This document shows positions 2,225 through 60,707 of a DNA stretch of 64,000 bases, in pieces (within the stretch, counting starts at the first letter, position 1; each line of letters begins with the position of its first letter). The position numbers and the translations under genes are program-made. This DNA is from Escherichia phage vB_Eco_QOTSP. Location of the stretch: sequence record OY720014; one strand, given 5' to 3'. The notes below the pieces were generated by a model. It saw only the letters and a list, made by a program, of their open reading frames with translations, had not been told where the DNA came from and did not search any database.

Positions 2225-3318
2225 TAAAAAGTCCCCGCATATAAAGAAGCACGGTTTAACGTGATAATTTCTCTCATAGTAATCTCAAGAGTAAATGTAC
2301 TAGGGAGGTTTGGAGCAATAGCTAATCCGTTAAAGTTACCATTAGGTGTTTTATCAAATCTGATGCTTTGTATTTGGCATGGGCCAAATATTTCCGTTTT
2401 TCCATCAAACTTAGATGTTGCACCAAAGTTTTTCACCATCCAAATTGTCGGGTTTGAAACTACTAGAACGTTAGTTAAACTCGATGTCATTTTCTCAAAT
2501 AGTGTTTTATTTTTAGCTGCGTCTTCCGGAGATAAAGGTTCAATTAACGTAGAACGATACCAATCATCTAAATACCCCTTTATTTCAGCAGCATATTGAG
2601 ATTTACCAGTTTCACCATAAGAAAAATAGTTAAAATATTGATAGATATTAATAATAGCCATTAAATCTTCTGTTGAACGTGGAGTCAAATCCCAAGTAAA
2701 CACTTTAGTTCTATTTTCAGCACCACCATACATACTTCGAGCCGTAGTGTATATTTGTTCATTATTATCAGCCATTATACCTTGTGTTATACTTTCCAGT
2801 GCTCCAAATACTGCAGTTGAAGCAATATTACTTAGCACACCAGTAGCAGTACCTCCGCCTCTGCTGATAAGACTTTCTTGAACATCATTAAATCTATGTG
2901 ATGATGTATCAACATCGGATTTAGATCTTGGTAAAAGAATATTTGCAACAGGGGCTTTACTTATTGTTCCTGAATTATTATCTGATATTAATCCATTTGA
3001 CAGTTTTGATACTGTATTACTGATAGTGTTTCTGGCTGTACGTAAAATACTCGAAGATGAAGAAGAGTAGTTAGATCTCATCGATCTAAGACTTCCAGAA
3101 TCCCTAGATGACATATTGTATGCAGTAAATAATAATCCATTCTTATATAGATCTGTTACCTGGAAGTCCCCTGTAGTGTCATTACCACTAGCACGCCCAG
3201 TTGGAAACTGGGCTGTGTATGTTTTAGTTCCTACTTCTGATTTAGTACTCTGTCCGGCTGAAATTTTCTCACCGGACTTTTTAATTAAATCAGCAGTTAT
3301 TTCTTTAACAATTGCCAT
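2224..3318 (-). CDS. 48: baseplate-tail tube junction protein gp48
   Basis: 364 aa, same length and position as T4 gp48. Confidence 0.85.
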   Translation of the reverse strand: MAIVKEITADLIKKSGEKISAGQSTKSEVGTKTYTAQFPTGRASGNDTTGDFQVTDLYKNGLLFTAYNMSSRDSGSLRSMRSNYSSSSSSILRTARNTISNTVSKLSNGLISDNNSGTISKAPVANILLPRSKSDVDTSSHRFNDVQESLISRGGGTATGVLSNIASTAVFGALESITQGIMADNNEQIYTTARSMYGGAENRTKVFTWDLTPRSTEDLMAIINIYQYFNYFSYGETGKSQYAAEIKGYLDDWYRSTLIEPLSPEDAAKNKTLFEKMTSSLTNVLVVSNPTIWMVKNFGATSKFDGKTEIFGPCQIQSIRFDKTPNGNFNGLAIAPNLPSTFTLEITMREIITLNRASLYAGTF

Positions 3319-3326
3319 ATTATTCC

Positions 3327-5099
3327 TTAATTAACCCCAGTCGCATCAAATACACCAGGAGCAGTTGTGCTTGTGACAGGTGTCATATTATGAACGACAG
3401 TATTTTTCTTAATAACATTATTAGTATTGTTGATTGAAGGAGATGCTTGTTGAACAGGAGCTTGCTGTGCTTTGTTCTTTTCTATTACCTGGACTTGTTT
3501 TGCTTCTGGCGATTTAGCAGAAGTTTCAGGTTTGGCATTAGGCTGATTTTTCTTGAGCTCTTGATAAGTAGCATCAATTTTAGAAAATCTAGCAGCAAGT
3601 TCTTTTTTAACTGCCGGTGAATTATTTAAATCCGGGTCATCCATCCGTTTTTTAAGGTCTTCATAGGCAGATTCAACAGATTTAACCGTTGAGTCTTTAC
3701 TCATATCAGCTGAATCAGCATATTTTTCAAAGCGAATCATTGCGGCACGGGCTTCATTAGCCTTCATTAAAGCATTTTTTCTTTCTTCAGGTGAAAGTTG
3801 CTTTAATTTTTCTTCTTCTGCTGCACGTTCTTCGTCGGTAGTTAGTGCTTCTTTATTATCAACCCCACGAATCCAATTAGATGCACGAGTTTTCCAATTA
3901 GCAATTTTATCTAATCCTTTTGCTATCGGACCAAGGTCTCCGTTCATTCGTTTATCTTGATAATTTGCAACTTTTTCCTGGTCTTCTTTATTGAGAGATG
4001 CTCCAGTAGAATTTTGGAAATTTTCTAATGCTCTTCCTTCTACTTCATCAGCAGTGTCTTTCATGCCAGGAATGACTCGAAGAATTGCAGCAGATAATTT
4101 AGCCATACCTAATTGAATAAGTTCTCCTAAATTATAAAGAACCTTTCCAAGCCCTTCAACAATAGCTACTGTCAATCCACCCCAATCTCCCGCTTCCCAG
4201 AACTTTTTAATTTCATCAATAGAACTAAAGATGCTCTGTAATAAAGGACCCCAAGTTCCGGTTTCGCTAGAGAATTTAGTAAAGTCAGTATTAAATAAAT
4301 CCCAGGCTTTTGAAAATTTATCTGACCAGTATTTAAAATGAACCATCAACAGGTCTATTCCAACAACAACAGCCAATATCATTGCAGTCATTTTAGCAGC
4401 TTCAATAGCAGCACTGACGGTGTACTTAAATAGCATGCTTGATATTTTATCAGTAATTGAAATGGATTTTTTAAATCCAAAATCAACAGTCTTCGTTAAT
4501 TTATCTAAAGCTTGAGATAATTTTAAGTTAAATGCTTCTTTTTTCTGTTTTTCTTCTGGCGATTCTTGTTTGGGTTCAACTGGCTGAGGGGTAGGGAAAA
4601 AATCAGCGTCAGGATCATTATTAACTGCTTCAGGGGCCGGTAATAAAGGACCCACAGATTCAGCAGTATCATCCTCAACGACTTTAACAGGAATAGCGCT
4701 TTCAACTGTGGCTAAACTAGTTCCAGTCTGTTGAATTCCAGCTGTCTGGATTTTTTGCTCTAGTAAACTTGTTAATTTATCTAATTTGCTCCCGAGTGAT
4801 TCACCGATTTCTTTATTAATATTGTTGCCAATTTCGACAGTTTCAGCAATTAACTCAGAACCGGCAGTAGTATCACTCACTGCTCTTTCTACGTTGTCAA
4901 TTGCTCCAATTATTTCATTCGATTTTTCTTCGACAGTTTGAGCAATTAACTCAGAAGCAGCTTGAGCATCATCCAATTTCGTAGATATATCGTTAAGTCC
5001 AGATAAAGTGTTGGAAGCGGATTTAGCCGCTTCCTGTGTTGGTTTATTATCTGAAATAACTTTTCTACGCATCGTTTGCATTTCTTGTGGCTTTTTCAT
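3327..5099 (-). CDS. 29: tail tape measure protein gp29
   Basis: 590 aa, position between 28 and 48; low-complexity extended protein. Confidence 0.85.
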   Translation of the reverse strand: MKKPQEMQTMRRKVISDNKPTQEAAKSASNTLSGLNDISTKLDDAQAASELIAQTVEEKSNEIIGAIDNVERAVSDTTAGSELIAETVEIGNNINKEIGESLGSKLDKLTSLLEQKIQTAGIQQTGTSLATVESAIPVKVVEDDTAESVGPLLPAPEAVNNDPDADFFPTPQPVEPKQESPEEKQKKEAFNLKLSQALDKLTKTVDFGFKKSISITDKISSMLFKYTVSAAIEAAKMTAMILAVVVGIDLLMVHFKYWSDKFSKAWDLFNTDFTKFSSETGTWGPLLQSIFSSIDEIKKFWEAGDWGGLTVAIVEGLGKVLYNLGELIQLGMAKLSAAILRVIPGMKDTADEVEGRALENFQNSTGASLNKEDQEKVANYQDKRMNGDLGPIAKGLDKIANWKTRASNWIRGVDNKEALTTDEERAAEEEKLKQLSPEERKNALMKANEARAAMIRFEKYADSADMSKDSTVKSVESAYEDLKKRMDDPDLNNSPAVKKELAARFSKIDATYQELKKNQPNAKPETSAKSPEAKQVQVIEKNKAQQAPVQQASPSINNTNNVIKKNTVVHNMTPVTSTTAPGVFDATGVN

Positions 5100-15046: not shown

Positions 15047-15070
15047 GGGACCGAAAGGTCCCTTTGTTTT
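15047..15070. terminator. bidirectional hairpin GGGACC-GAAA-GGTCCC + T-run between rnlB and gene 24
   Basis: Seen directly. Confidence 0.65.
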
Positions 15071-16352
15071 ATTCATCAATGATAATTTTTGGTAGCTTAA
15101 CACCTAATAAAACAGACAAATCTGAACGACCCGCCATTTTATCCATGTCTCCACCATCAATTACTCTTGCTTCTTTTTCATCTTTTGCTACGGTGTAAGG
15201 ATTTGCAGATAAAGCATATCTAACTAATAAACCGATAGACGGTTGCAAGCTTTCTGGATCAACAACAACTTTAAATGCACCTACATGTTCAGGGTCATCT
15301 AAGTCGAGACCTTCTGTATACGGAGCATAGAAAATTGATCCAACAATTTCTTTTTCACCGATATTTTCTACTACGCCAACGATTACATAATCTAATGGGC
15401 TGTTAGTATCGCAATAAAGTGGTAAACCATTAGCTAAAAACCCATAGGCATTTTGTGAAAGATATTTATCATCTTCTGGTTTATGTTTTAACCAACCTGA
15501 TGCAGCAAGAATCGCGGCGGCACGAGCAGAAGCAACACAGAACGTTGCTGTATAAGTTGATTCTTTTTGGATATGCGAAACCATTTCACATACCATTCGG
15601 TATAATGAACGACCAGCTTCAGGTGCAGATGCATAACTCAAATCAATGAATCCAGTATCAGTAATTCCTGTAACTTTATAACGTTTTGATACTGTAATCA
15701 AAGACTGCAGAATATCTTTATTGATTTCATCTGCCATTTCAGTTGCAAGCAAATCTTCCAAGAAATTAGGAGCATCGAATCCATTTGCTTCTAAATCTTG
15801 TGCTAATTCAACTGTGATACCAGTTTTAAGTTTGCGAGATTTAACTGCGGTTTGCCATTTATTAATCTGGAATCTAGCATCCGCAATTTCACTATCAGAG
15901 CTTTCAAATTTGCTTGTTGATGCTGCGTCAGAAAATAGACGAACCTTTAAAAGAACAATTGCAATCTGAAGAGCTAATTCTAAATCGCTTTCTTCAATAT
16001 CAGCAAATGGTGTATCTTCTAATACTTTATAAACGATATTATTATATTTGAATAAATCGCCTTTATTGAGAGTTAATTTAGACTCTTCTGTTAATTCTGT
16101 GATTTGTTCTCGGTCTACATATCCGGCTTCGCCAGCGTAAGTAGCACCAGTTTTAAATGTAAATTCATTGTCTGGGTTAAGGTATTTGATACCATAAAAA
16201 GCAGCAACAGGTTGATTAGTTCTTTGCGTTGCTACAATGTCAGAATATATTAATTTAGTGGTAGCGCGAGTCAAAGCAACGAGATTTGGGCGACCGATTG
16301 AGTTGCTATTCGTTGTGGTTGATTCGCGCAGAAGTTCGTTGATTTTAGCCAT
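15069..16352 (-). CDS. 24: head vertex protein gp24
   Basis: 427 aa, paralogous to gp23, T4 position. Confidence 0.9.
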   Translation of the reverse strand: MAKINELLRESTTTNSNSIGRPNLVALTRATTKLIYSDIVATQRTNQPVAAFYGIKYLNPDNEFTFKTGATYAGEAGYVDREQITELTEESKLTLNKGDLFKYNNIVYKVLEDTPFADIEESDLELALQIAIVLLKVRLFSDAASTSKFESSDSEIADARFQINKWQTAVKSRKLKTGITVELAQDLEANGFDAPNFLEDLLATEMADEINKDILQSLITVSKRYKVTGITDTGFIDLSYASAPEAGRSLYRMVCEMVSHIQKESTYTATFCVASARAAAILAASGWLKHKPEDDKYLSQNAYGFLANGLPLYCDTNSPLDYVIVGVVENIGEKEIVGSIFYAPYTEGLDLDDPEHVGAFKVVVDPESLQPSIGLLVRYALSANPYTVAKDEKEARVIDGGDMDKMAGRSDLSVLLGVKLPKIIIDE

Positions 16353-16404
16353 TGCGCTTTCCTTTTGGTTTATATGATTTATTTATACCATAAAAACAAC
16401 TAAA

Positions 16405-16420
16405 GGGACCCGAAGGTCCC
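16405..16420. terminator. hairpin GGGACC-CGAA-GGTCCC between genes 23 and 24
   Basis: Seen directly; same hairpin family as 1237 and 15047. Confidence 0.5.
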
Positions 16421-16435
16421 TTAAATCGTCAAAGA

Positions 16436-18001
16436 TTAGATACCTTTAACATATACACGGCGGAAGTAAGCGTTTTTACCAAGGCTATTCAGAATAGAAG
16501 GCATACCGCTCTGGATGCGAGAAGCCGGAGCCTGAGCAGCGGATTCTGCAAATGGGTTGATACCGATACCGTAACGAGTTTTGAATCCCATTACCGGTTG
16601 GAAGTTCTTCGGATCGGAACCACGCAGCGGAGTCAGAGCTACATATGGAGCGTAGTAAATACCAGCATCCATTTCGTTCGGACCTTTATAACCTACAGTG
16701 AAATAATCCTGTTTAGCATACTGGTCGATATATACACGGTATTTACCACCCAGAACACCAGCAAATACTGACTTGGTAGTATCAGTGTTAAAGCCGGTAG
16801 CCAGACCCTGTGCAGCATAAGAAATGCCAGTATCAACTGAAGCCAGAACGTTAACTACGTTACGGGAAGCGATAATGAAGTTACCTTCACCACGACCGGT
16901 CTGACGAGCAATTTCAACTGCTTCTTTGTCAATCTGGAACAACAGAGCTTTAAAGGATTCACCCGCCCAGCGAGCACCACGAATATCAATCGGATCCTGG
17001 AAGTCAAATACACCAGCTTTAGAACCCGGAGTCAGGGTCATACCAGATTTACCAACCTGAGCTGAGTAGTTAATCCAATCAACAACTTCGCGGTTGATTT
17101 CCAGCATGATTTCGGTAGCCAGAATACCAGACAGTTCAGCATCAGCATCCATACCGTGAACAGCGCGGAGGTCTTGTGCTAATTCGATAGAGTAAGCAGC
17201 TTTCAGCTGGCGAGATTTAGCTTCGATAACTTGTTTATCGATACGGAAGCCCATTTCATTCCATGGGTTATCGGTAGAACCGTTGAAACCTTCCTGAAGT
17301 TCAGCGATAGAAGTAGCCATACCTTCTGCGATTTCTACCAGTACACCAGCTTCCATTTGTTTCTTAATTTCAGCATCTAATTTAGCTGCATCATCTGCAG
17401 TAGAACTAATTGTTACTTGAGCAGAAGCTTGCAGATACACAGTACCAGTGTCCTGGAAGAAGTGAGTATAGATATCACCTACTGTAGTTTGCGTGCTAGC
17501 AGCCAGAGCTGGGAATTTCTTAGCAGCACCCTGACCAGAGAACATTGCATCTGGACCATACATTGGGTGGAATGCTTCTTTAGCGCCGGAAGCGATTGGG
17601 TCTTTACCATATACTGCGCGCAGTGCGAATACCTGGCCAGTCGGGCTGTTCATCGGCTGAACACCACAAATATCGAAAGCAATCAGGTTAGGAATAGCAC
17701 GACGTACCATACCCATAACAGCTGGGCCAATCTGAGTTACTGCGCCAGAAGTCTGACCTGCAGCGATGTTGGTAGCATTGTAACCGTGGTCACCACCGAT
17801 TTCAGCTTCTGTTAAGAAAGAACCAAATGCCTGAGCAATTTTTTCGTCTTTGTATTCTGGAGCTGTCTGGAAATCTTTTTCCTGGTTTTCAAAGATTTTA
17901 GCGATAATCGCTTGTTTGCTATTAGCAATTTCCGGTAAACCTTCACCTTCCAGTAATGGCTTCCATTTGTTCAAAAGTTCAGCTTTAGTTTTGATAGTCA
18001 T
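16436..18001 (-). CDS. 23: major capsid protein gp23
   Basis: 521 aa, N-terminus MTIKTKAELLNKWKPLLEG... recognisable as T4 gp23; high GC and host-like codon usage. Confidence 0.95.
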   Translation of the reverse strand: MTIKTKAELLNKWKPLLEGEGLPEIANSKQAIIAKIFENQEKDFQTAPEYKDEKIAQAFGSFLTEAEIGGDHGYNATNIAAGQTSGAVTQIGPAVMGMVRRAIPNLIAFDICGVQPMNSPTGQVFALRAVYGKDPIASGAKEAFHPMYGPDAMFSGQGAAKKFPALAASTQTTVGDIYTHFFQDTGTVYLQASAQVTISSTADDAAKLDAEIKKQMEAGVLVEIAEGMATSIAELQEGFNGSTDNPWNEMGFRIDKQVIEAKSRQLKAAYSIELAQDLRAVHGMDADAELSGILATEIMLEINREVVDWINYSAQVGKSGMTLTPGSKAGVFDFQDPIDIRGARWAGESFKALLFQIDKEAVEIARQTGRGEGNFIIASRNVVNVLASVDTGISYAAQGLATGFNTDTTKSVFAGVLGGKYRVYIDQYAKQDYFTVGYKGPNEMDAGIYYAPYVALTPLRGSDPKNFQPVMGFKTRYGIGINPFAESAAQAPASRIQSGMPSILNSLGKNAYFRRVYVKGI

Positions 18002-18019
18002 TTGTGTTAACCTTTAAAA

Positions 18020-18829
18020 TTAGAAACGAGATGCGACTTTCGCATATACACTTACAATATCTTCTGCACCTTGTGCAGCTTTATCTTCTACAGCTTCAGT
18101 GACGAAATTCAGTCCGGCTGCTTCAGTATCAGGAGTATTTATACTCTCAGTAATAGTGCTTTCATCTTTATTAGATTTCTTCACCATTTCTACGATTGCA
18201 CTCAATTTACTTGAGAATGCATCTGAATAATCCATACCTTCGACCAGAGCAGAGACTTTTTCTTTTTGAGACTCAGTCAGATCTTTAGTACTTTCGCTCA
18301 ATGCCACTTCACGCTGCACATAATTGATATATGCGTCACGCTTATTGAGTTCTTCGAACAGACGAGCTGATTCTTCTTTATGTTCTTGCAGCTCTTCTTC
18401 CATTTCAGCTACAACATCAACTGATTCTTCTGGAACAACAACGTTGTGTTCAACAAAGAGCTCTTTTAATCCACCAAGCATGGATTCAAACAGTTCGGCT
18501 TTGATGCCTTTATCAACTGCTAATTTATTTTCAGCGAGCCATTCTTTCGCAAGATGGTCAATGAATTTAGAAGCTTGCTCAGCGATTTTCTTCTCAGCTT
18601 TTTCTTCGGCTTCTTCTTTATTTTTTTCTACTTCTTCTTCTGCTTTTTCAGCAATTTTAGCGATATGAGATTCAGCTAATTTAACGGCGTGCTGCTTGAC
18701 GGTAGCTTCGAATACAGTGCCGAAAGTTTCTTTTGCTTCCGGAGAAATATTAACTGATTCGAAAATACTATCAAGAGCAACGGAAGCATCAATTTTTTGC
18801 GCTTCAGCAATCAGTTGTTCTTTAAGCAT
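18020..18829 (-). CDS. 22: prohead scaffold protein gp22
   Basis: 269 aa, acidic coiled-coil. Confidence 0.9.
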   Translation of the reverse strand: MLKEQLIAEAQKIDASVALDSIFESVNISPEAKETFGTVFEATVKQHAVKLAESHIAKIAEKAEEEVEKNKEEAEEKAEKKIAEQASKFIDHLAKEWLAENKLAVDKGIKAELFESMLGGLKELFVEHNVVVPEESVDVVAEMEEELQEHKEESARLFEELNKRDAYINYVQREVALSESTKDLTESQKEKVSALVEGMDYSDAFSSKLSAIVEMVKKSNKDESTITESINTPDTEAAGLNFVTEAVEDKAAQGAEDIVSVYAKVASRF

Positions 18830-18855
18830 TTTGTAGTCCTGTTGTTTAGATAATA

Positions 18856-18863
18856 ATATTTAT
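18856..18863 (-). promoter_or_regulatory. late promoter TATAAATA upstream of gene 22
   Basis: Exact TATAAATA on minus strand about 27 bp from start codon. Confidence 0.6.
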
Positions 18864-19498
18864 AACGCTTTTTTCATGGCCTCTGCGAGAGCCATATAGG
18901 CGTCATCGGCACTTGTATCGGCTTCCGCCGTCTGTGATTCGGTAATTTCCTTAGGAGTTACCCATGCATCTGGAGCACTTGGACCCCATACTGCATCAAC
19001 ACCTACAGTTAATTTGAATCCTTCGTTTACGATACGATAACCTTTATTTGTGTCAGTCAATGAACCTAATCCACGAGAAGAAACTCCTGGAATCCATCCG
19101 GCACGAATATTAGCTGCTAATTTATCTCCAGGACCATGGTCACCTTCAATAACACGAGCTCGTCCGTATACGTCATTTCCTTTCCACCACATATCTTCTA
19201 TAATGATAGCGGCTTGCATCGGGTCAACATTAGCGCGTGGAGGATGATTTAATTCTCCGAGAGCTTGTTTAGTTAAAACTTGCTCATTGATATAGTCTTT
19301 TACCGCTTTTTCTAATATGCGTTTTGGATAAAGACGTTTATTTCTATTGACGACTTCCGCTTGCATGAATATTCCTTCGATGTATAAACCAGGTTTTAAA
19401 CCTAGGTCTTTTCCATCATGAGATTCAAGCATTGGCACGCCATCAATAATTTCGCCAGGTTGACCCCAAGTTTCAATTAGTAATTGGGGTTCATTCAT
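18860..19498 (-). CDS. 21: prohead core protease gp21
   Basis: 212 aa, recognisable T4 gp21. Confidence 0.9.
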   Translation of the reverse strand: MNEPQLLIETWGQPGEIIDGVPMLESHDGKDLGLKPGLYIEGIFMQAEVVNRNKRLYPKRILEKAVKDYINEQVLTKQALGELNHPPRANVDPMQAAIIIEDMWWKGNDVYGRARVIEGDHGPGDKLAANIRAGWIPGVSSRGLGSLTDTNKGYRIVNEGFKLTVGVDAVWGPSAPDAWVTPKEITESQTAEADTSADDAYMALAEAMKKAL

Positions 19499-19923
19499 TA
19501 GCTTAATCCTAATGCTTTACGGCGTTTAAGAGCTTTTTTACGCTTACGCTGAGCACGAGATTGACCTGCTGGGTTGGCAATCTTCGTTTTGGTAGCTTTG
19601 CGAGCAATTTGTCTACGTTTTGCTTTAGACAGCCCGGTGGTTTGAAATGCATTACGTTCACGCGTCTTGCGGTCTTTAGTACGTGTAATTTCACCACGAG
19701 CAGAAACATGTTTAACGATGAATTCATTTAGCGGCATATCTTCATTAATAGAAGCTAATGCAATCGCTAAATCAGTTTCATCATCAAGCATATTCTCGAC
19801 AATTGTATTTATATCGTCTTTATTTAAAGCAGAAGACAATTCGTCAAAGCGACCCTGTGCTTCAGGAATAAGTGCTTCGACATTCTCGAGAACTAATTCA
19901 TGAGTTTCAGGGATCAGAAGCAT
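19498..19923 (-). CDS. 68: prohead core protein gp68
   Basis: 141 aa, position. Confidence 0.8.
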
Positions 19924-20179
19924 TATTCATCATCCTCGTCTTCGTCATCTTCGTCAGAGTCTTTGTCTTTTTTGTCGTCTTTATCATCGCTATCTTCATC
20001 ATCCTCGTCTTCGTCATCATCCTCGTCATCAGGTTCTTCACCTTCGATTAAGAAATTACGAGCGATAGCGATTTTTTCTTCTTTAATTAAATCAATCGTT
20101 CTTGCAGCCATGGCTTCAGCAAAGAATTTACGAGCGGCTACGAGGTCGTTTGATTTAATAGCTTCAATTAAACCTTCCA

Positions 20180-20180
<1 letters not shown>
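19923..20180 (-). CDS. 67: prohead core protein gp67 with poly-acidic tail
   Basis: 85 aa; Asp/Glu-rich low-complexity C-terminus. Confidence 0.8.
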
Positions 20181-21805
<1,625 letters not shown>

Positions 21806-48519: not shown

Positions 48520-48777
48520 ATGAAAACTTTCAAAGAGTTTGCTACAGAAACTATTATCACTGAATCTTCTCATGGTATGGAAGTAAAGCTTGGAATGGCT
48601 TTAGCTGAAGCTGAGCGTCTTTTTTCTCGTATTAAAGAACTTGCTGCTGCAGTCGATCCTTCATCTTTTAAAGGAGACCAAACTAAAGTTAAAGCACTTT
48701 TAGCATTATGCTCTGATGCAGGAGAAATCGCTAAGAACGGTTCTAAGATGAAGAAACGATTAGAAGATTTAAAATAA
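48520..48777 (+). CDS. small protein with capsid-targeting-like N-terminus (MKTFKEFATE)
   Basis: 85 aa ORF with RBS, downstream of early promoter cassette. Confidence 0.6.
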   Translation: MKTFKEFATETIITESSHGMEVKLGMALAEAERLFSRIKELAAAVDPSSFKGDQTKVKALLALCSDAGEIAKNGSKMKKRLEDLK

Positions 48778-48855: not shown

Positions 48856-49089
48856 ATGAAAACGTATCAAGAATTTATTGCTGAAGCTGCTGATGTAAAA
48901 GTTGAGTTTATTTACATTGGCAAGAAAGATAAAATGGGCGAAATGCCTCATGGAGTTCTTCGTGATGCATTAGATAATTTCGGTCAACTCGCCGCAGAAG
49001 ATTACGGTGATAAAATTGTTGTTACTGGTCCGGCTGCAGTTATTGAAAAATGGGCAGCAGAAAATAAATCAATTTTTCGTAAAAAATGA
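48856..49089 (+). CDS. ipI: internal protein I-like head protein (CTS MKTYQEFIAE)
   Basis: 77 aa from ATG with GGAG RBS; canonical T4 capsid targeting sequence; ipI locus position. Confidence 0.65.
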   Translation: MKTYQEFIAEAADVKVEFIYIGKKDKMGEMPHGVLRDALDNFGQLAAEDYGDKIVVTGPAAVIEKWAAENKSIFRKK

Positions 49090-54968: not shown

Positions 54969-55562
54969 ATGAACATGCTGAAGAAAATTGTTGAGTTTAT
55001 TCGCACTAAACTTGGTTCTGCTATGGCTAAAAATCTATCTGTTGAAGAACAGTATACTGCTGCAGCAGCAAAACTACTTGATAAGATTAAAGATCTAAAA
55101 ACTGCTTCTGTTAAATCTATTAATGAAGAAAAACGTATTCGTGAACTTATTGTCGAAAAGAATCGACAGGCCGAATCAAAAGAGCGTGAAATTCGCAAGC
55201 TTCTTTCTGAAGGTCAAGATGTAACAATGCATGCTAAACTTGGTTTACTATATCGTCGAACAGCTGAGCAGTTGACTACTAAAGCTGATGGTTATGCTGA
55301 AATGCGAATTGAAATCGCCAAGAAAGTAGTTGAGTTAGATGATGCTCGCCAAGAACTTGCAGTTAAATTGGAATATATCCGTGAAACTCGCGCCGCGAAT
55401 GCCCTCGGAATTAGTACTGCTGATGATGTAGTTGAAATTGCAGCACTGACTAAGGTTGATATTGAAGATACTCTTGCTCGAGTTGAAACCTTTAATGGCA
55501 ATATTTCTGGGGTTGAAACTACCTCTGCCGATGTTCAGGAATACATTAATTCTCTGAAATAA
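54969..55562 (+). CDS. hypothetical alpha-helical coiled-coil protein (197 aa)
   Basis: ORF with RBS; followed by hairpin GGGGC-TTCG-GCCCC at 55569..55582. Confidence 0.6.
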
Positions 55563-55603
55563 TGATAAGGGGCTTCGGCCCCTATTACTTGGAGTAAGTA
55601 GGA

Positions 55604-56212
55604 ATGAAAATGCAAAGTGATTTCAATTCAATGTTTGAAGAGTTCCAAAGACAGGTTGATGTTCCAGACCAATTATTAAATGCTCTTAAACGTATGGCAG
55701 AAGGACGTAATTATTATTGGGGTTCTTCATATGAAACTGATGAAAGTCTTTCTAGAGGATTTTCTAGAGGTAAAAAGTCTTTAATACGTCCTGGAATACT
55801 TATTAACAGTATTGAATCAATTCATTTATTAACATGCGATTTTGACGTTGAATTTACTGATTTTGTTTCTCCTGAATGGACGGTCTGTTATTTAAACGAC
55901 GATTATGATTATCTTGGCGTTTATAGTTTAAGTGATGCATGGTTTAAACGTAATTTACAAAAGTCAAATTTATTTTATATTGATACTACGGTAAAATTTC
56001 AGGGAAAGAAATATTTCTTTACTCTTATAGTTGACTCTGAAACGAAACATGAAAATAAACGTATTCTTAGTAAAAAGAATATCTTAACTATTGTTGATGA
56101 TCTTTTTGATAAATTTGTGGAAAATCCCAATTTTGAAAGCGATTTATTACTAGAAAAATTTGTTAAGGAATGTAGAGAATATGTCAAAGCCATCACTATA
56201 CCTTCCAAGTAA
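55604..56212 (+). CDS. hypothetical protein (202 aa), C-terminal FVKECREY motif
   Basis: ORF; first member of the junction-motif family. Confidence 0.6.
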   Translation: MKMQSDFNSMFEEFQRQVDVPDQLLNALKRMAEGRNYYWGSSYETDESLSRGFSRGKKSLIRPGILINSIESIHLLTCDFDVEFTDFVSPEWTVCYLNDDYDYLGVYSLSDAWFKRNLQKSNLFYIDTTVKFQGKKYFFTLIVDSETKHENKRILSKKNILTIVDDLFDKFVENPNFESDLLLEKFVKECREYVKAITIPSK

Positions 56213-56573
56213 ACCGTTGAAGTATGAATTAAAGCGTCAGATAATTTCTACTGATGTGTTAATAGGTCCTGTGGTAGCCGTATCATTTGTGATTCTGCTG
56301 ATTGCTGGAATAGTTATAGACGTTATGACTGATATTGAATCTGGTGCAATATTTGGAGCAACACTAATTCTTCCATTGGTAGTTCCGCTTTTATTAGTAC
56401 CTATAAATTGGATAGGATATTGGTATCAAGGAAGACACTATCGTAAACGTGTACGTGATTGGAAAGCTCAGTGTAAAAAGATTAAAAAGGAACATCAGCT
56501 TAAACTTGCTGCGCATGAATTTGATGAAATTATGAAATTTGTTAAGGAATCACGATGCAAAAGCCAAAACTAA
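56181..56573 (+). CDS. small membrane protein (about 130 aa), C-terminal FVKESRCK motif
   Basis: Two predicted TM segments; start taken at ATG 56181 (ORF track start 56160 is upstream). Confidence 0.55.
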   Translation: MSKPSLYLPSKPLKYELKRQIISTDVLIGPVVAVSFVILLIAGIVIDVMTDIESGAIFGATLILPLVVPLLLVPINWIGYWYQGRHYRKRVRDWKAQCKKIKKEHQLKLAAHEFDEIMKFVKESRCKSQN

Positions 56574-56917
56574 ATAAAGTCAAATATTCTCTTCCTGAGT
56601 CATTTTTAATTTTTGCTGTAGCGTTGGCTGCAGCTCTTGCGGGTAGTCTTTTTGGATTGTTAATTGACTGTCTTATTTTAAACATTGACGGCACAGTAAA
56701 TATAATAGAAGTTTGGAGTGAACTTCACTATACTAAAATTATTTCATTATTTTCATTCTTTGGTACAATGTTATATTTTCATTATGATAATTTTAAAATA
56801 AATTGGCAAAGAAAAAAGGATTACAAAATACAATTAAAGGAATATAATAGCTACATGTCTTATATTGAAAAAGAATCAATGGAAGAGTTTGTGAGTGATT
56901 GTAGGAAAATTAAATGA
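56555..56917 (+). CDS. small membrane protein (120 aa), C-terminal FVSDCRKIK motif
   Basis: TM segments; RBS AAGGAA. Confidence 0.6.
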   Translation: MQKPKLNKVKYSLPESFLIFAVALAAALAGSLFGLLIDCLILNIDGTVNIIEVWSELHYTKIISLFSFFGTMLYFHYDNFKINWQRKKDYKIQLKEYNSYMSYIEKESMEEFVSDCRKIK

Positions 56918-57398
56918 TTTTAAAAACTCGCTGGTATGATTTAGATGATGGGGATGATGGCATTTCAGTTGATAGAGTTGACTGGAATGGTTGTTCCGAA
57001 GATATGAAAAATTTGTTGATTAGGGAGTTTAGAATGGGATATCAAGCAGCTAAGCCATCTATTATAACAGATGATAAATTCGTGTGTATTCATAATGGTC
57101 GTGCTAAGTTAACAAATGCTGATTGGTTTACAAATAAGATTATGATTCTGTGGTATATCATTAGTCTTCCTGTGTCATCATTTGTATTTTGCTTCTTTGG
57201 TGAAAGTCCAATAGGCAGAACAGGAGATTGGATTCTTTTAATTATGCTTGTTAATATTTTGACAGCAGCAATATTATCTGGGATATGGTACACGTTCATT
57301 GAAATGCCATGGCGGCTACGCAGACAACAAAAGATTTTTGATGAAAAGAAATACGCTCAAAATTTAAATAACTTTATCACTGAATGCAGGAAATTAAA

Positions 57399-57402
<4 letters not shown>
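56914..57402 (+). CDS. small membrane protein (162 aa), C-terminal FITECRKLK motif
   Basis: TM segments; ATGA overlap with previous gene. Confidence 0.6.
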
Positions 57403-58371
<969 letters not shown>

Positions 58372-58375
58372 AGTT

Positions 58376-58409
58376 GTTTACTTTCTCCTAGAATTGTGAT
58401 AGTATATTC
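58376..58409 (+). promoter_or_regulatory. early promoter with stem-loop (TGTGA...TCACA) upstream of denV
   Basis: GTTTAC and A/T-rich -10 seen. Confidence 0.5.
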
Positions 58410-58430
58410 ACAGTTACTTGGAGGGATAAA

Positions 58431-58847
58431 ATGACTCGTATTAATTTGACTTTAGTATCTGAACTTGCTGATCAACATTTAATCGCAGAATACCGTGAAT
58501 TGCCGCGTGTTTTTGGTATAGTTCGTAAGCATGTGGCAAACGGTAAGCGCGTTAAAGATTTTAAAATATCTTCCGAGTTTATTTTAGGTTCTGGTCATGT
58601 TACGTTCTTTTACGATAAGTTAGAATTTTTGCGAAAGCGTCAATCGGACATTATAACGGAATGCTTAAAACGCGGGTTCAGTATAAAAGATACTGAAGTT
58701 CCTGACATCAGCGATATTCCAGTAGAATGGAAAAATGATTATAATCCATGCAAATCAGCTATTAAATTGAGTCAACAACGACTTGATGAAAAAATTTTAA
58801 TGAAACCACATTGGTATAAGTATTACGGTAAAAATATTTACATTTAA
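58431..58847 (+). CDS. denV: endonuclease V (pyrimidine dimer DNA glycosylase)
   Basis: 138 aa, [17 protein letters not shown]... recognisable as T4 DenV. Confidence 0.95.
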
Positions 58848-58856
58848 AGGAAACAT

Positions 58857-59330
58857 ATGAAAACATATCAAGAATTTATCGCTGAAGCAGCTATTAATTC
58901 TCAAATTATTGCTGAATCTTTTACTGATCTTTTGAAATTTAAAAAAGGTCAAAAAATCACTGCTGTATTGGATGATGGTACAGAAGTTGAGATGGATGTA
59001 CAGGGATATAATTATGCAGTAGATGGAAAACTGTATAATAAATCTCATGCTAAATTTGATTCATTTGACGACTTTGTTAATACAGTTGAAGATGAAAAAA
59101 CTCGTAGATCCATTGCAACTGGTGATGCTAAGGTTCTTATGGCACATGGTCATGAACGCATTCGCGCTAAACAGAATAAAATGGGTGAAGATAATTTCGC
59201 ATTAGTTGGTTATCAATCTGGTAAACAAACTTATGGCTATCAACGTACTGCTACCATGTATAATAAAAATGGTAAAATTGCCTTTGTGAATAGTAAAGGT
59301 TCTATTCAGTACGTTAAATCGTTCAAATAA
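58857..59330 (+). CDS. internal protein-like head protein (CTS MKTYQEFIAEAA), 157 aa
   Basis: Canonical capsid targeting sequence; position near e as for T4 ipII/ipIII. Confidence 0.65.
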   Translation: MKTYQEFIAEAAINSQIIAESFTDLLKFKKGQKITAVLDDGTEVEMDVQGYNYAVDGKLYNKSHAKFDSFDDFVNTVEDEKTRRSIATGDAKVLMAHGHERIRAKQNKMGEDNFALVGYQSGKQTYGYQRTATMYNKNGKIAFVNSKGSIQYVKSFK

Positions 59331-59471
59331 TATGGGAACAACCTGGACCTCATGATTCTATGAGGGATTCCCGCCAACCTGTAATAAGGTCGAGCCTGAG
59401 TGCGGTAATGGGTAAATACAGAAATGGACAATTCATGCGCCACGGAATGGCCCAAATTTAGAGAGAATAAA

Positions 59472-60011
59472 ATGAGAACATTTTTAACTGGTCCTTATCT
59501 ATCCCTGATGAATGCTTTTACACACCATTCTGACGCTAGAGTAGAAGAAATTTGTAAAAACGAATATATCCCGCCATTTGAAGAATTACTTAAACAGTAC
59601 TGCACACTTCGTATAGATGGTGGACGTCAATCCGGTAAATCAATTGCTGTGACTAACTTTGCTGCTAATTGGTTGTATGATGGCGGAACAGTTATTGTTC
59701 TTTCTAATACTTCAGCTTACGCTAAAATTTCTGCAAATAACATTAAAAAGGAATTTTCGCGTTATTCTAATGATGATATACGTTTTCGTTTATTTACTGA
59801 TTCTGTGCGCAGTTTTATTGGTAATAAAGGAAGCAAGTTCAGAGGTTTATCGCTTTCGCGAATTTTGTATATAATTGATGAGCCTGTCAAATCTCCTGAT
59901 ATGGATAAGATTTATAGCGTCCATATTGACACTGTACACTACTGCTGTAATAGTAAATGTTGCATTGGTGGTATTACTCGTCCACAGTTTTTCGTAATCG
60001 GAATGCAATAA
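59472..60011 (+). CDS. small P-loop NTPase-like protein with C-terminal Cys cluster
   Basis: Walker A GGRQSGKS, Walker B-like ILYIIDEP, HYCCNSKCC; start at ATG 59472 (ORF track start 59424). Confidence 0.55.
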   Translation: MRTFLTGPYLSLMNAFTHHSDARVEEICKNEYIPPFEELLKQYCTLRIDGGRQSGKSIAVTNFAANWLYDGGTVIVLSNTSAYAKISANNIKKEFSRYSNDDIRFRLFTDSVRSFIGNKGSKFRGLSLSRILYIIDEPVKSPDMDKIYSVHIDTVHYCCNSKCCIGGITRPQFFVIGMQ

Positions 60012-60337
60012 TGACAGACACACAGCTTTTCGAATATCTCTATTTTTCGCCAAAAACTATTAAAAATAAATTGGTAAATCATTTTGAAATTTTGGCAAAT
60101 AACAACATTTTAAGCGAATTTTATCCCAAGCAATACAAATTACAAAAAGGCGTATTCAAAGGATGCAGAGTTTTGTGCACTGCTCCTAACGCGCAGTTAA
60201 TGAATAAAATTCCATATTTTACCATGGAATTTATTGATGGACCTTTTAAAGGACTAATCACCCAAAGTTTAATGGCATATGATTCTGAGCCATTTTTAAT
60301 TAAAGAACAATCTTGGATAAATTTATTTTCTAATTGA
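60011..60337 (+). CDS. hypothetical protein (108 aa)
   Basis: ORF from ATG overlapping previous stop. Confidence 0.55.
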
Positions 60338-60344
60338 GGTTTAT

Positions 60345-60707
60345 ATGAAAGCATATCAAATTCTTGAAGGCACACATAAAGGTACTATTTATTTTGAAGA
60401 TGGTATTCAAGCACGAATTATTGTCTCTAAAACCTTTAAAGAGGACTCTTTTGTAGACCCGGAAATTTTCTACGGTTTGCATGCCCGTGAAATTGAAATT
60501 GAAACACAACCTACAGTTAAAATTGAAGGTGGTCAACACCTGAACGTTAACGTTCTGCGTCGCGAAACTCTGGAAGATGCAGTTAAGCATCCGGAAAAAT
60601 ATCCGCAGCTGACCATCCGTGTATCCGGTTATGCAGTTCGCTTTAACTCTCTGACTCCGGAACAGCAGCGCGACGTTATCGCTCGTACCTTTACTGAGAG
60701 TTTGTAA
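60345..60707 (+). CDS. autonomous glycyl radical cofactor (GrcA/YfiD-like; T4 Y06I-type)
   Basis: C-terminal 60 aa matches E. coli GrcA as recalled, including RVSGYAVRF glycyl radical motif; host-like GC in 3' half. Confidence 0.85.

Follow-up and report, generated by a model that had tools for sequence, protein, structure and literature searches.

The 157-residue open reading frame that follows denV in Escherichia phage vB_Eco_QOTSP (record OY720014) is, by its sequence, Ip4, a known internal head protein of the T-even phages with Pfam and PHROG families of its own; it is already known and not a new protein. We consider it very probable that the proposal as a whole holds, namely that Ip4 is a known protein packaged by means of its CTS, cut by gp21, injected, probably directed against host defence, and encoded by a cassette gene. 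In the window, the whole stretch of 64,000 nucleotides that was analysed, the gene order is nudE, e, denV, ip4, vs.8 (Table 1). The preliminary description had placed a frame of 157 codons immediately after denV, and the frame was confirmed on the + strand; it starts with ATG 9 nt after the denV stop codon, encodes 157 aa followed by a stop, and its translation opens MKTYQEFIAEAAINSQ. The same description had pointed out that this position differs from that in T4, and ipIII and ipII do sit between e and denV there; the site 3' of denV is not a new location, since a single polymorphic IP locus is known in several arrangements and this is one of them.

Table 1. Coordinates of the features discussed; positions are those of the window except in the last row.
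Feature	Coordinates	Strand	Evidence or remark
gp24	15069-16352	-	head-morphogenesis block 15069-21766
gp23	16436-18001	-	head-morphogenesis block 15069-21766
gp22 scaffolding core protein	18020-18829	-	Pfam T4_CASP, 1.7e-89
gp21 prohead core serine protease	18860-19498	-	Pfam Peptidase_S77, 1.5e-111
gp20 portal	20180-21766	-	head-morphogenesis block 15069-21766
CTS gene, 85 aa, leader MKTFKEFATE	48520-48777		phrog_3499; ipI-type locus of the window
CTS gene, 77 aa, leader MKTYQEFIAEAA as in Ip4	48856-49089		phrog_8111; ipI-type locus of the window
nudE	57384-57839		gene order in the window
Two late-promoter motifs TATAAATA, at 57843 and 57856	57843-57863	+	motif search; upstream of e
e (lysozyme)	57877-58371		gene order in the window
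Conserved block 3' of e, GTTTAC ... TAGTATATT, preceding denV	58372-58430	+	sequence comparison
denV	58431-58847		Pyr_excise, phrog_1183
Left junction: IP-cassette leader AAAAATATTTACATTTAAAGGAAACAT, Shine-Dalgarno AGGA at 58848-58851	58830-58856	+	comparison with T4 and T2
ip4 CDS, Ip4 family DUF7412 / phrog_3155	58857-59330	+	ORF, translation, Pfam, PHROG
CTS, codons 1-10, MKTYQEFIAE, ending in an I-x-E motif	58857-58886	+	match to T4 IPII and IPIII
Right junction: conserved block GGGAACAACCTGGACC...	59333-59471	+	alignment with T4, T2, RB18, RB51 and Kelasse
vs.8	from 59472		next gene 3' of ip4
denV-like gene and DUF7412 relative	139-1215 of contig Ga0485749_006685		JGI metagenome contig

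Identification of the ORF as Ip4

The translated frame matched Pfam DUF7412 (PF24183) at 1e-95, with 318.6 bits against a cut-off of 27 and over positions 1-157 of the 158 in the model, and phrog_3155, "internal virion protein", was matched at full length (1.5e-101). The protein encoded just 3' of e in T2 has the same residue as the window protein at 156 of 157 positions, and Ip4 of phage K3 (UniProt Q38388) is 98% identical to it. In the BFVD viral structure library, Q38388, "Ip4 [Enterobacteria phage K3]", was again the only entry matched significantly (TM 0.88), and the Ip4 fold has no informative structural relative. The homologous gene of RB51 is annotated as Ip4, 'similar to T2, RB70 Ip4', and the label is used in the records of RB51, GiZh, wV7, JK1 and ECML-363. 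The Ip4 proteins of K3, T2, RB70 and RB51 are the same as that of the window in length and e-adjoining locus, at 98-99% identity; at the DNA level, too, ip4 shares 98-99% identity with many Tequatrovirus genomes, and "Ip4 / internal head protein" is the annotation in several of them.

A tblastn search with Ip4 matched 470 phage records, with at least 95% identity in 306 of them (phages of Escherichia, Shigella and Yersinia and related phages) and 60-80% identity in a further 160 (phages of Klebsiella, Salmonella and Serratia and related phages); the family as a whole spans phages of Escherichia, Klebsiella, Salmonella, Serratia, Proteus and Erwinia. Homologues keep 61-81% identity over several Tevenvirinae genera, the family alignment has 68 invariant columns, many of them Gly, Tyr, His, Asn or Phe, and dN/dS for ip4 is 0.05-0.14 across genera. 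The full-length Pfam match, the conservation across genera, the dN/dS values and the peptides of a homologue detected by mass spectrometry mark ip4 as a real gene rather than a chance frame.

To look for distant homologues, 1.84 billion representative proteins were searched exhaustively with a profile. Only seven matched: P0015-P0017, P0012 (a member of the family), two fragments, and a long protein that was hit weakly through a repeat. P0015-P0017 are full-length distant relatives, each with a CTS-like leader, which has the form MNF(E/K)(Q/D)FLNE↓S in two of them. One of the three, a DUF7412 relative of 167 aa with the leader MNFKDFLNES, is encoded directly 3' of a denV-like Pyr_excise gene on a metagenome contig (Table 1), so that the adjacency of denV and ip4 is found far outside Tequatrovirus. 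In the T2 record AP018813.1, the Ip4 gene (3083-3556) carries the label 'valyl tRNA synthetase modifier', and the vs genes beside it are called 'tail sheath monomer', 'tail tube protein' and the like; these automatic annotations are clearly shifted or erroneous.

Ip4 is distinct from IPII and IPIII

The preliminary description had recognised a CTS-type N-terminus, and the first 11 residues, MKTYQEFIAEA, are indeed common to Ip4 of the window, T4 IPII and T4 IPIII. The sizes that it quoted for the T4 proteins were essentially right (IPII is 100 aa and IPIII 193 aa), and its view that the ORF corresponds to neither was borne out; past a CTS of about 12 residues, similarity to either protein is not significant. 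The pairwise alignments that it proposed revealed no high identity. Alignment with IPIII was limited to residues 1-13, of which 11 are identical, whereas BLASTP with IPII gave 32% identity over 77 residues (E = 2e-7), a score driven by the CTS. After removal of the CTS, the best match to IPII was 24% over 80 residues (E = 0.011) and the best E-value for IPIII was 0.79, both being single-pair comparisons without composition correction. IPIII resembles Ip4 in its identical 11-residue CTS, its basic character, its polymorphic locus and its upstream leader with a ribosome-binding site, but it differs in length (193 against 157 aa) and shows no similarity after residue 13; IPII has the identical CTS, the identical 27-nt upstream leader and the same locus, but it is only 100 aa long and the mature parts of the two proteins lack significant similarity.

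Two other readings of the ORF were weighed against these data. That Ip4 might be a divergent orthologue of T4 IPII or IPIII is suggested by the CTS and locus that the three have in common and by the full-length E-value of 2e-7 for IPII, but that value comes from the CTS, the matches with the CTS removed are not convincing, and Ip4 falls into Pfam and PHROG families separate from those of IPII and IPIII. Furthermore, ip4 and ipII adjoin in Klebsiella phages, ipII co-occurring with ip4 in Klebsiella Jiaodaviruses. Because of the poor CTS-removed scores and this side-by-side occurrence, we regard orthology as very unlikely and effectively refuted; as far as alignment and gene content tell, Ip4 is a distinct internal protein. 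Still harder to credit is an internal protein not described before. Many GenBank records name Ip4 'hypothetical protein', and full-text searching of the literature for 'Ip4' returned no papers, but novelty is ruled out by the 98% identity to Q38388, the Ip4-labelled phage records, DUF7412 and phrog_3155. Moreover, 'ip4-10' were assayed experimentally in 2025 (PMC12373910), and the same paper, which speaks of "at least 10" Ips, cites Repoila et al. for a report of ten IP ORFs in 1994. The suggestion of a 'divergent or novel internal protein' in the preliminary description therefore stands as to an internal-protein gene distinct from IPII and IPIII and falls as to novelty, given Q38388 and the Ip4 of T2 and RB51. 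The discovery value of the ORF as Ip4 is correspondingly small, as the gene was named in the 1990s, is covered by Pfam and PHROG families and occurs in 470 phage records.

CTS, processing and virion presence

The N-terminus of Ip4 is MKTYQEFIAEAA; M1, K2, F7 and E10 are invariant in the family, the last among the 13 members compared. In T4, precursors of internal proteins reach the scaffolding core by way of their CTS, which gp21 then clips off, and the proteins enter the host together with the DNA (PMC3012670, PMC9391042). The window encodes gp21 and gp22 along with gp20, gp23 and gp24. By virtue of the identity of its CTS with those of IPII and IPIII, MKTYQEFIAE would bring the Ip4 precursor to the scaffolding core that gp22 forms in the prohead, where gp21 encoded in the window would be expected to cut after Glu10 (I-A-E↓A) and leave a basic Ip4 among the packaged DNA. 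The mature protein is predicted to have 147 aa, about 16.5 kDa and a pI of 9.1, with 17 Lys and 5 Arg. Codon 9 (58881-58883) encodes Ala (FIAE) in ip4 of the window, a residue also specified by T4 ipII, T4 ipIII and the ORF at 48856, whereas Ip4 of T2, RB51, RB18 and Kelasse has Thr9 (FITE); the difference may reflect gene conversion within the common CTS-coding segment.

Mass spectrometry of two CsCl-purified Klebsiella phages, ValerieMcCarty03 and ValerieMcCarty04, yielded 66 PSMs in each for gp127 and gp119, respectively (PMC13119998). By sequence and locus, ValerieMcCarty03 gp127 is an Ip4 homologue (70% identity, E = 8e-85). Direct detection in virions thus pertains to this 70%-identical homologue only, and the presence of Ip4 in virions of the window phage is presumed by analogy; proteomics of phage HY01 covered five major bands only. 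The virion peptides listed for ValerieMcCarty04 gp119 in the supplementary rows begin at residue 13 and reach almost to the C-terminus. The CTS peptide of the Klebsiella homologue, TYQEFLNESR, accounted for 0 of the 66 PSMs, with the adjacent tryptic peptide seen and no N-terminal peptide mapped; its string does occur 66 times in the text, a count equal to that of the rows in which gp119 is printed in full. The absence of this peptide is consistent with cleavage after E10, as negative evidence only.

Processing of IPI removes 19 residues, and Ip4 has a Glu at position 20 (codon 20, 58914-58916) that is invariant in the family and always lies in a hydrophobic-x-E context, with residues 11-19 forming the most variable stretch of the family. 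These features would suit a gp21 that cuts Ip4 twice, after Glu10 and Glu20, as with IPI, so that the functional form would begin at Ser21. The virion peptide LATVGVMTESVGSNLLK, however, crosses the second site and was represented by 3 PSMs in purified virions of the Klebsiella homologue, and no peptide with SVGSNLLK as its start was seen, although the same data report non-tryptic peptides. Two-step processing is not supported by these data and strikes us as quite improbable; a single cut after Glu10 is preferred.

Proposed function of Ip4

Once injected with the DNA, Ip4 would act in the first minutes of infection, most probably by specifically inhibiting a host defence directed at modified DNA as it enters the cell. 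This role is proposed by analogy with Ip1, Ip2 and Ip3, each of which blocks one different GmrSD-type type IV restriction enzyme (PMC12373910), and we regard the chances for and against it as about evenly balanced. T4 IPI (Ip1), which inhibits GmrS/GmrD of E. coli CT596, is likewise a small injected protein that is directed by a CTS, processed by gp21 and specified by a gene in a polymorphic IP locus (PMC3012670). IPIII is active in the cytoplasm when it lacks its CTS (PMC9391042). IPII (Ip2) inhibits the fused GmrSD/BrxU of ECOR21 and IPIII (Ip3) the two-gene GmrSD system of ECOR17; T2, the carrier of a 99%-identical Ip4, is restricted by both of these targets, GmrSD-ECOR21 and GmrSD-ECOR17 (PMC12373910). 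When 'ip4-10' were assayed against further GmrSD variants, no reproducible inhibition was obtained, the 'ip4' of that study being tied to Ip4 of the window by name (Silas et al., PMC12373910). More tentatively, and with the odds somewhat against it, Ip4 could, after injection, inhibit a defence other than the GmrSD variants assayed so far, candidates being a modification-dependent nuclease of another class and some different first-response system; if this is true, the target range of T-even internal proteins reaches beyond GmrSD.

A packaged Ip4 might instead have no specific host target and serve mainly as a basic, lysine-rich counter-ion that aids condensation or ejection of the DNA. The mature protein is basic, with its 22 Lys and Arg among 147 residues, the lysines of internal proteins are described in a review of the T4 head as contacting DNA phosphates (PMC3012670), and the published GmrSD assays gave no Ip4 target. 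A generic polycation, however, needs neither 68 invariant positions rich in Gly, Tyr, His, Asn and Phe nor such low dN/dS across genera, and the patchy presence of ip4 in Tequatrovirus and its exchange with unrelated IPs follow the pattern of an accessory arms-race gene. In addition, all three T4 IPs, formerly deemed generic, now have specific targets (PMC12373910). A purely charge-neutralising role is possible, then, but fits poorly, and we think it improbable. With the anti-defence role preferred, what gives Ip4 its remaining value is its position as an orphan next to Ip1-Ip3, each of which has one GmrSD target; since Ip4 is widespread and strongly conserved, it is a reasonable bait with which to look for a host defence directed at T-even DNA as it comes in.

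Expression signals

The pair of TATAAATA motifs upstream of e, a sequence that we take to be the T4 late-promoter consensus, were the only late-promoter motifs found in 55000-60500, and scans found no dedicated late promoter or terminator beside ip4. As the only late motifs in this interval sit 5' of e, late expression of ip4 probably occurs by read-through from e, and the late e-denV-ip4 transcript, required while heads are being assembled, is likely to arise from the pair. The conserved block 3' of e, which precedes denV in the window, precedes ipIII in T4 and ip4 in T2 and looks like a putative T4 early-type promoter; a generic sigma-70 scan made no call at 58372-58430. Transcription of ip4 would accordingly be shared with e and denV, late from both TATAAATA motifs and probably early too.

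The cassette locus and its junctions

The genes beside e vary among phages. The order is e-ipIII-ipII-denV-vs.8 in T4, e-ip4-vs.8 in T2 and RB18, e-denV-ip4-vs.8 in the window phage and RB51, e-(93-aa IP)-denV-ip4-vs.8 in Kelasse, e-ip4-ipII in Klebsiella phages PKO111 and ValerieMcCarty03, and e-ip4-(87-aa CTS ORF) in Salmonella phage Melville; the window phage thus has denV between e and ip4, whereas T2 and RB18 have no denV there. Some Tequatroviruses carry ip4 and others lack it, with unrelated IPs in exchange. Judged by these arrangements, the polymorphic IP locus beside e holds ip4 as a mobile cassette between conserved blocks, and the flanking blocks would allow IP genes to be swapped by recombination. 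The arrangements match the IP cassette model reportedly put forward by Repoila et al. in 1994. A phrog_3499 member lies in the ipI-type locus of the window and another in the e locus of Kelasse (2286-2567 of the compared region), which indicates that IP cassettes move between the two IP loci. The e-adjoining locus shows clearly how IP genes travel as cassettes between conserved flanks.

At the left junction, the 27-nt leader matches the sequence before T4 ipII exactly and those before T4 ipIII and T2 ip4 almost exactly. Its first part doubles as the final five codons and stop of denV, and the encoded C-terminus reads GKNIYI before the stop in the window as against GKAIYA in T4; the C-terminus of denV (58830-58847) has thus been rewritten, its last codons being supplied by the conserved IP leader at the cassette junction. 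A SNORD116 match inside the ip4 CDS (E = 0.083) was dismissed as chance.

The counterpart of the right block in T4 is made up of the denV-vs.8 spacer together with the 5' part of vs.8; in the window a TAG stop closes the block. The GC-rich stretch of about 140 bp 3' of ip4 had no Rfam match and no folding signal (z = 0.11); a structured RNA or small-RNA gene was accordingly rejected there, the stretch being the conserved vs.8 5' region. The block of about 140 bp is highly conserved in T4, T2, RB18, RB51 and Kelasse, and in T4 it forms the in-frame 5' part of vs.8 (219 aa). The window and most relatives have TAG for the TAT of T4 and lack an 8-bp segment present in T4, with the result that the window has a separate 33-codon ORF at 59360-59461 (MRDSRQPVIRSS...) and vs.8 restarts at 59472. 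The block represents either a lineage-specific fusion at the start of T4 vs.8 or a conserved small upstream ORF or leader.
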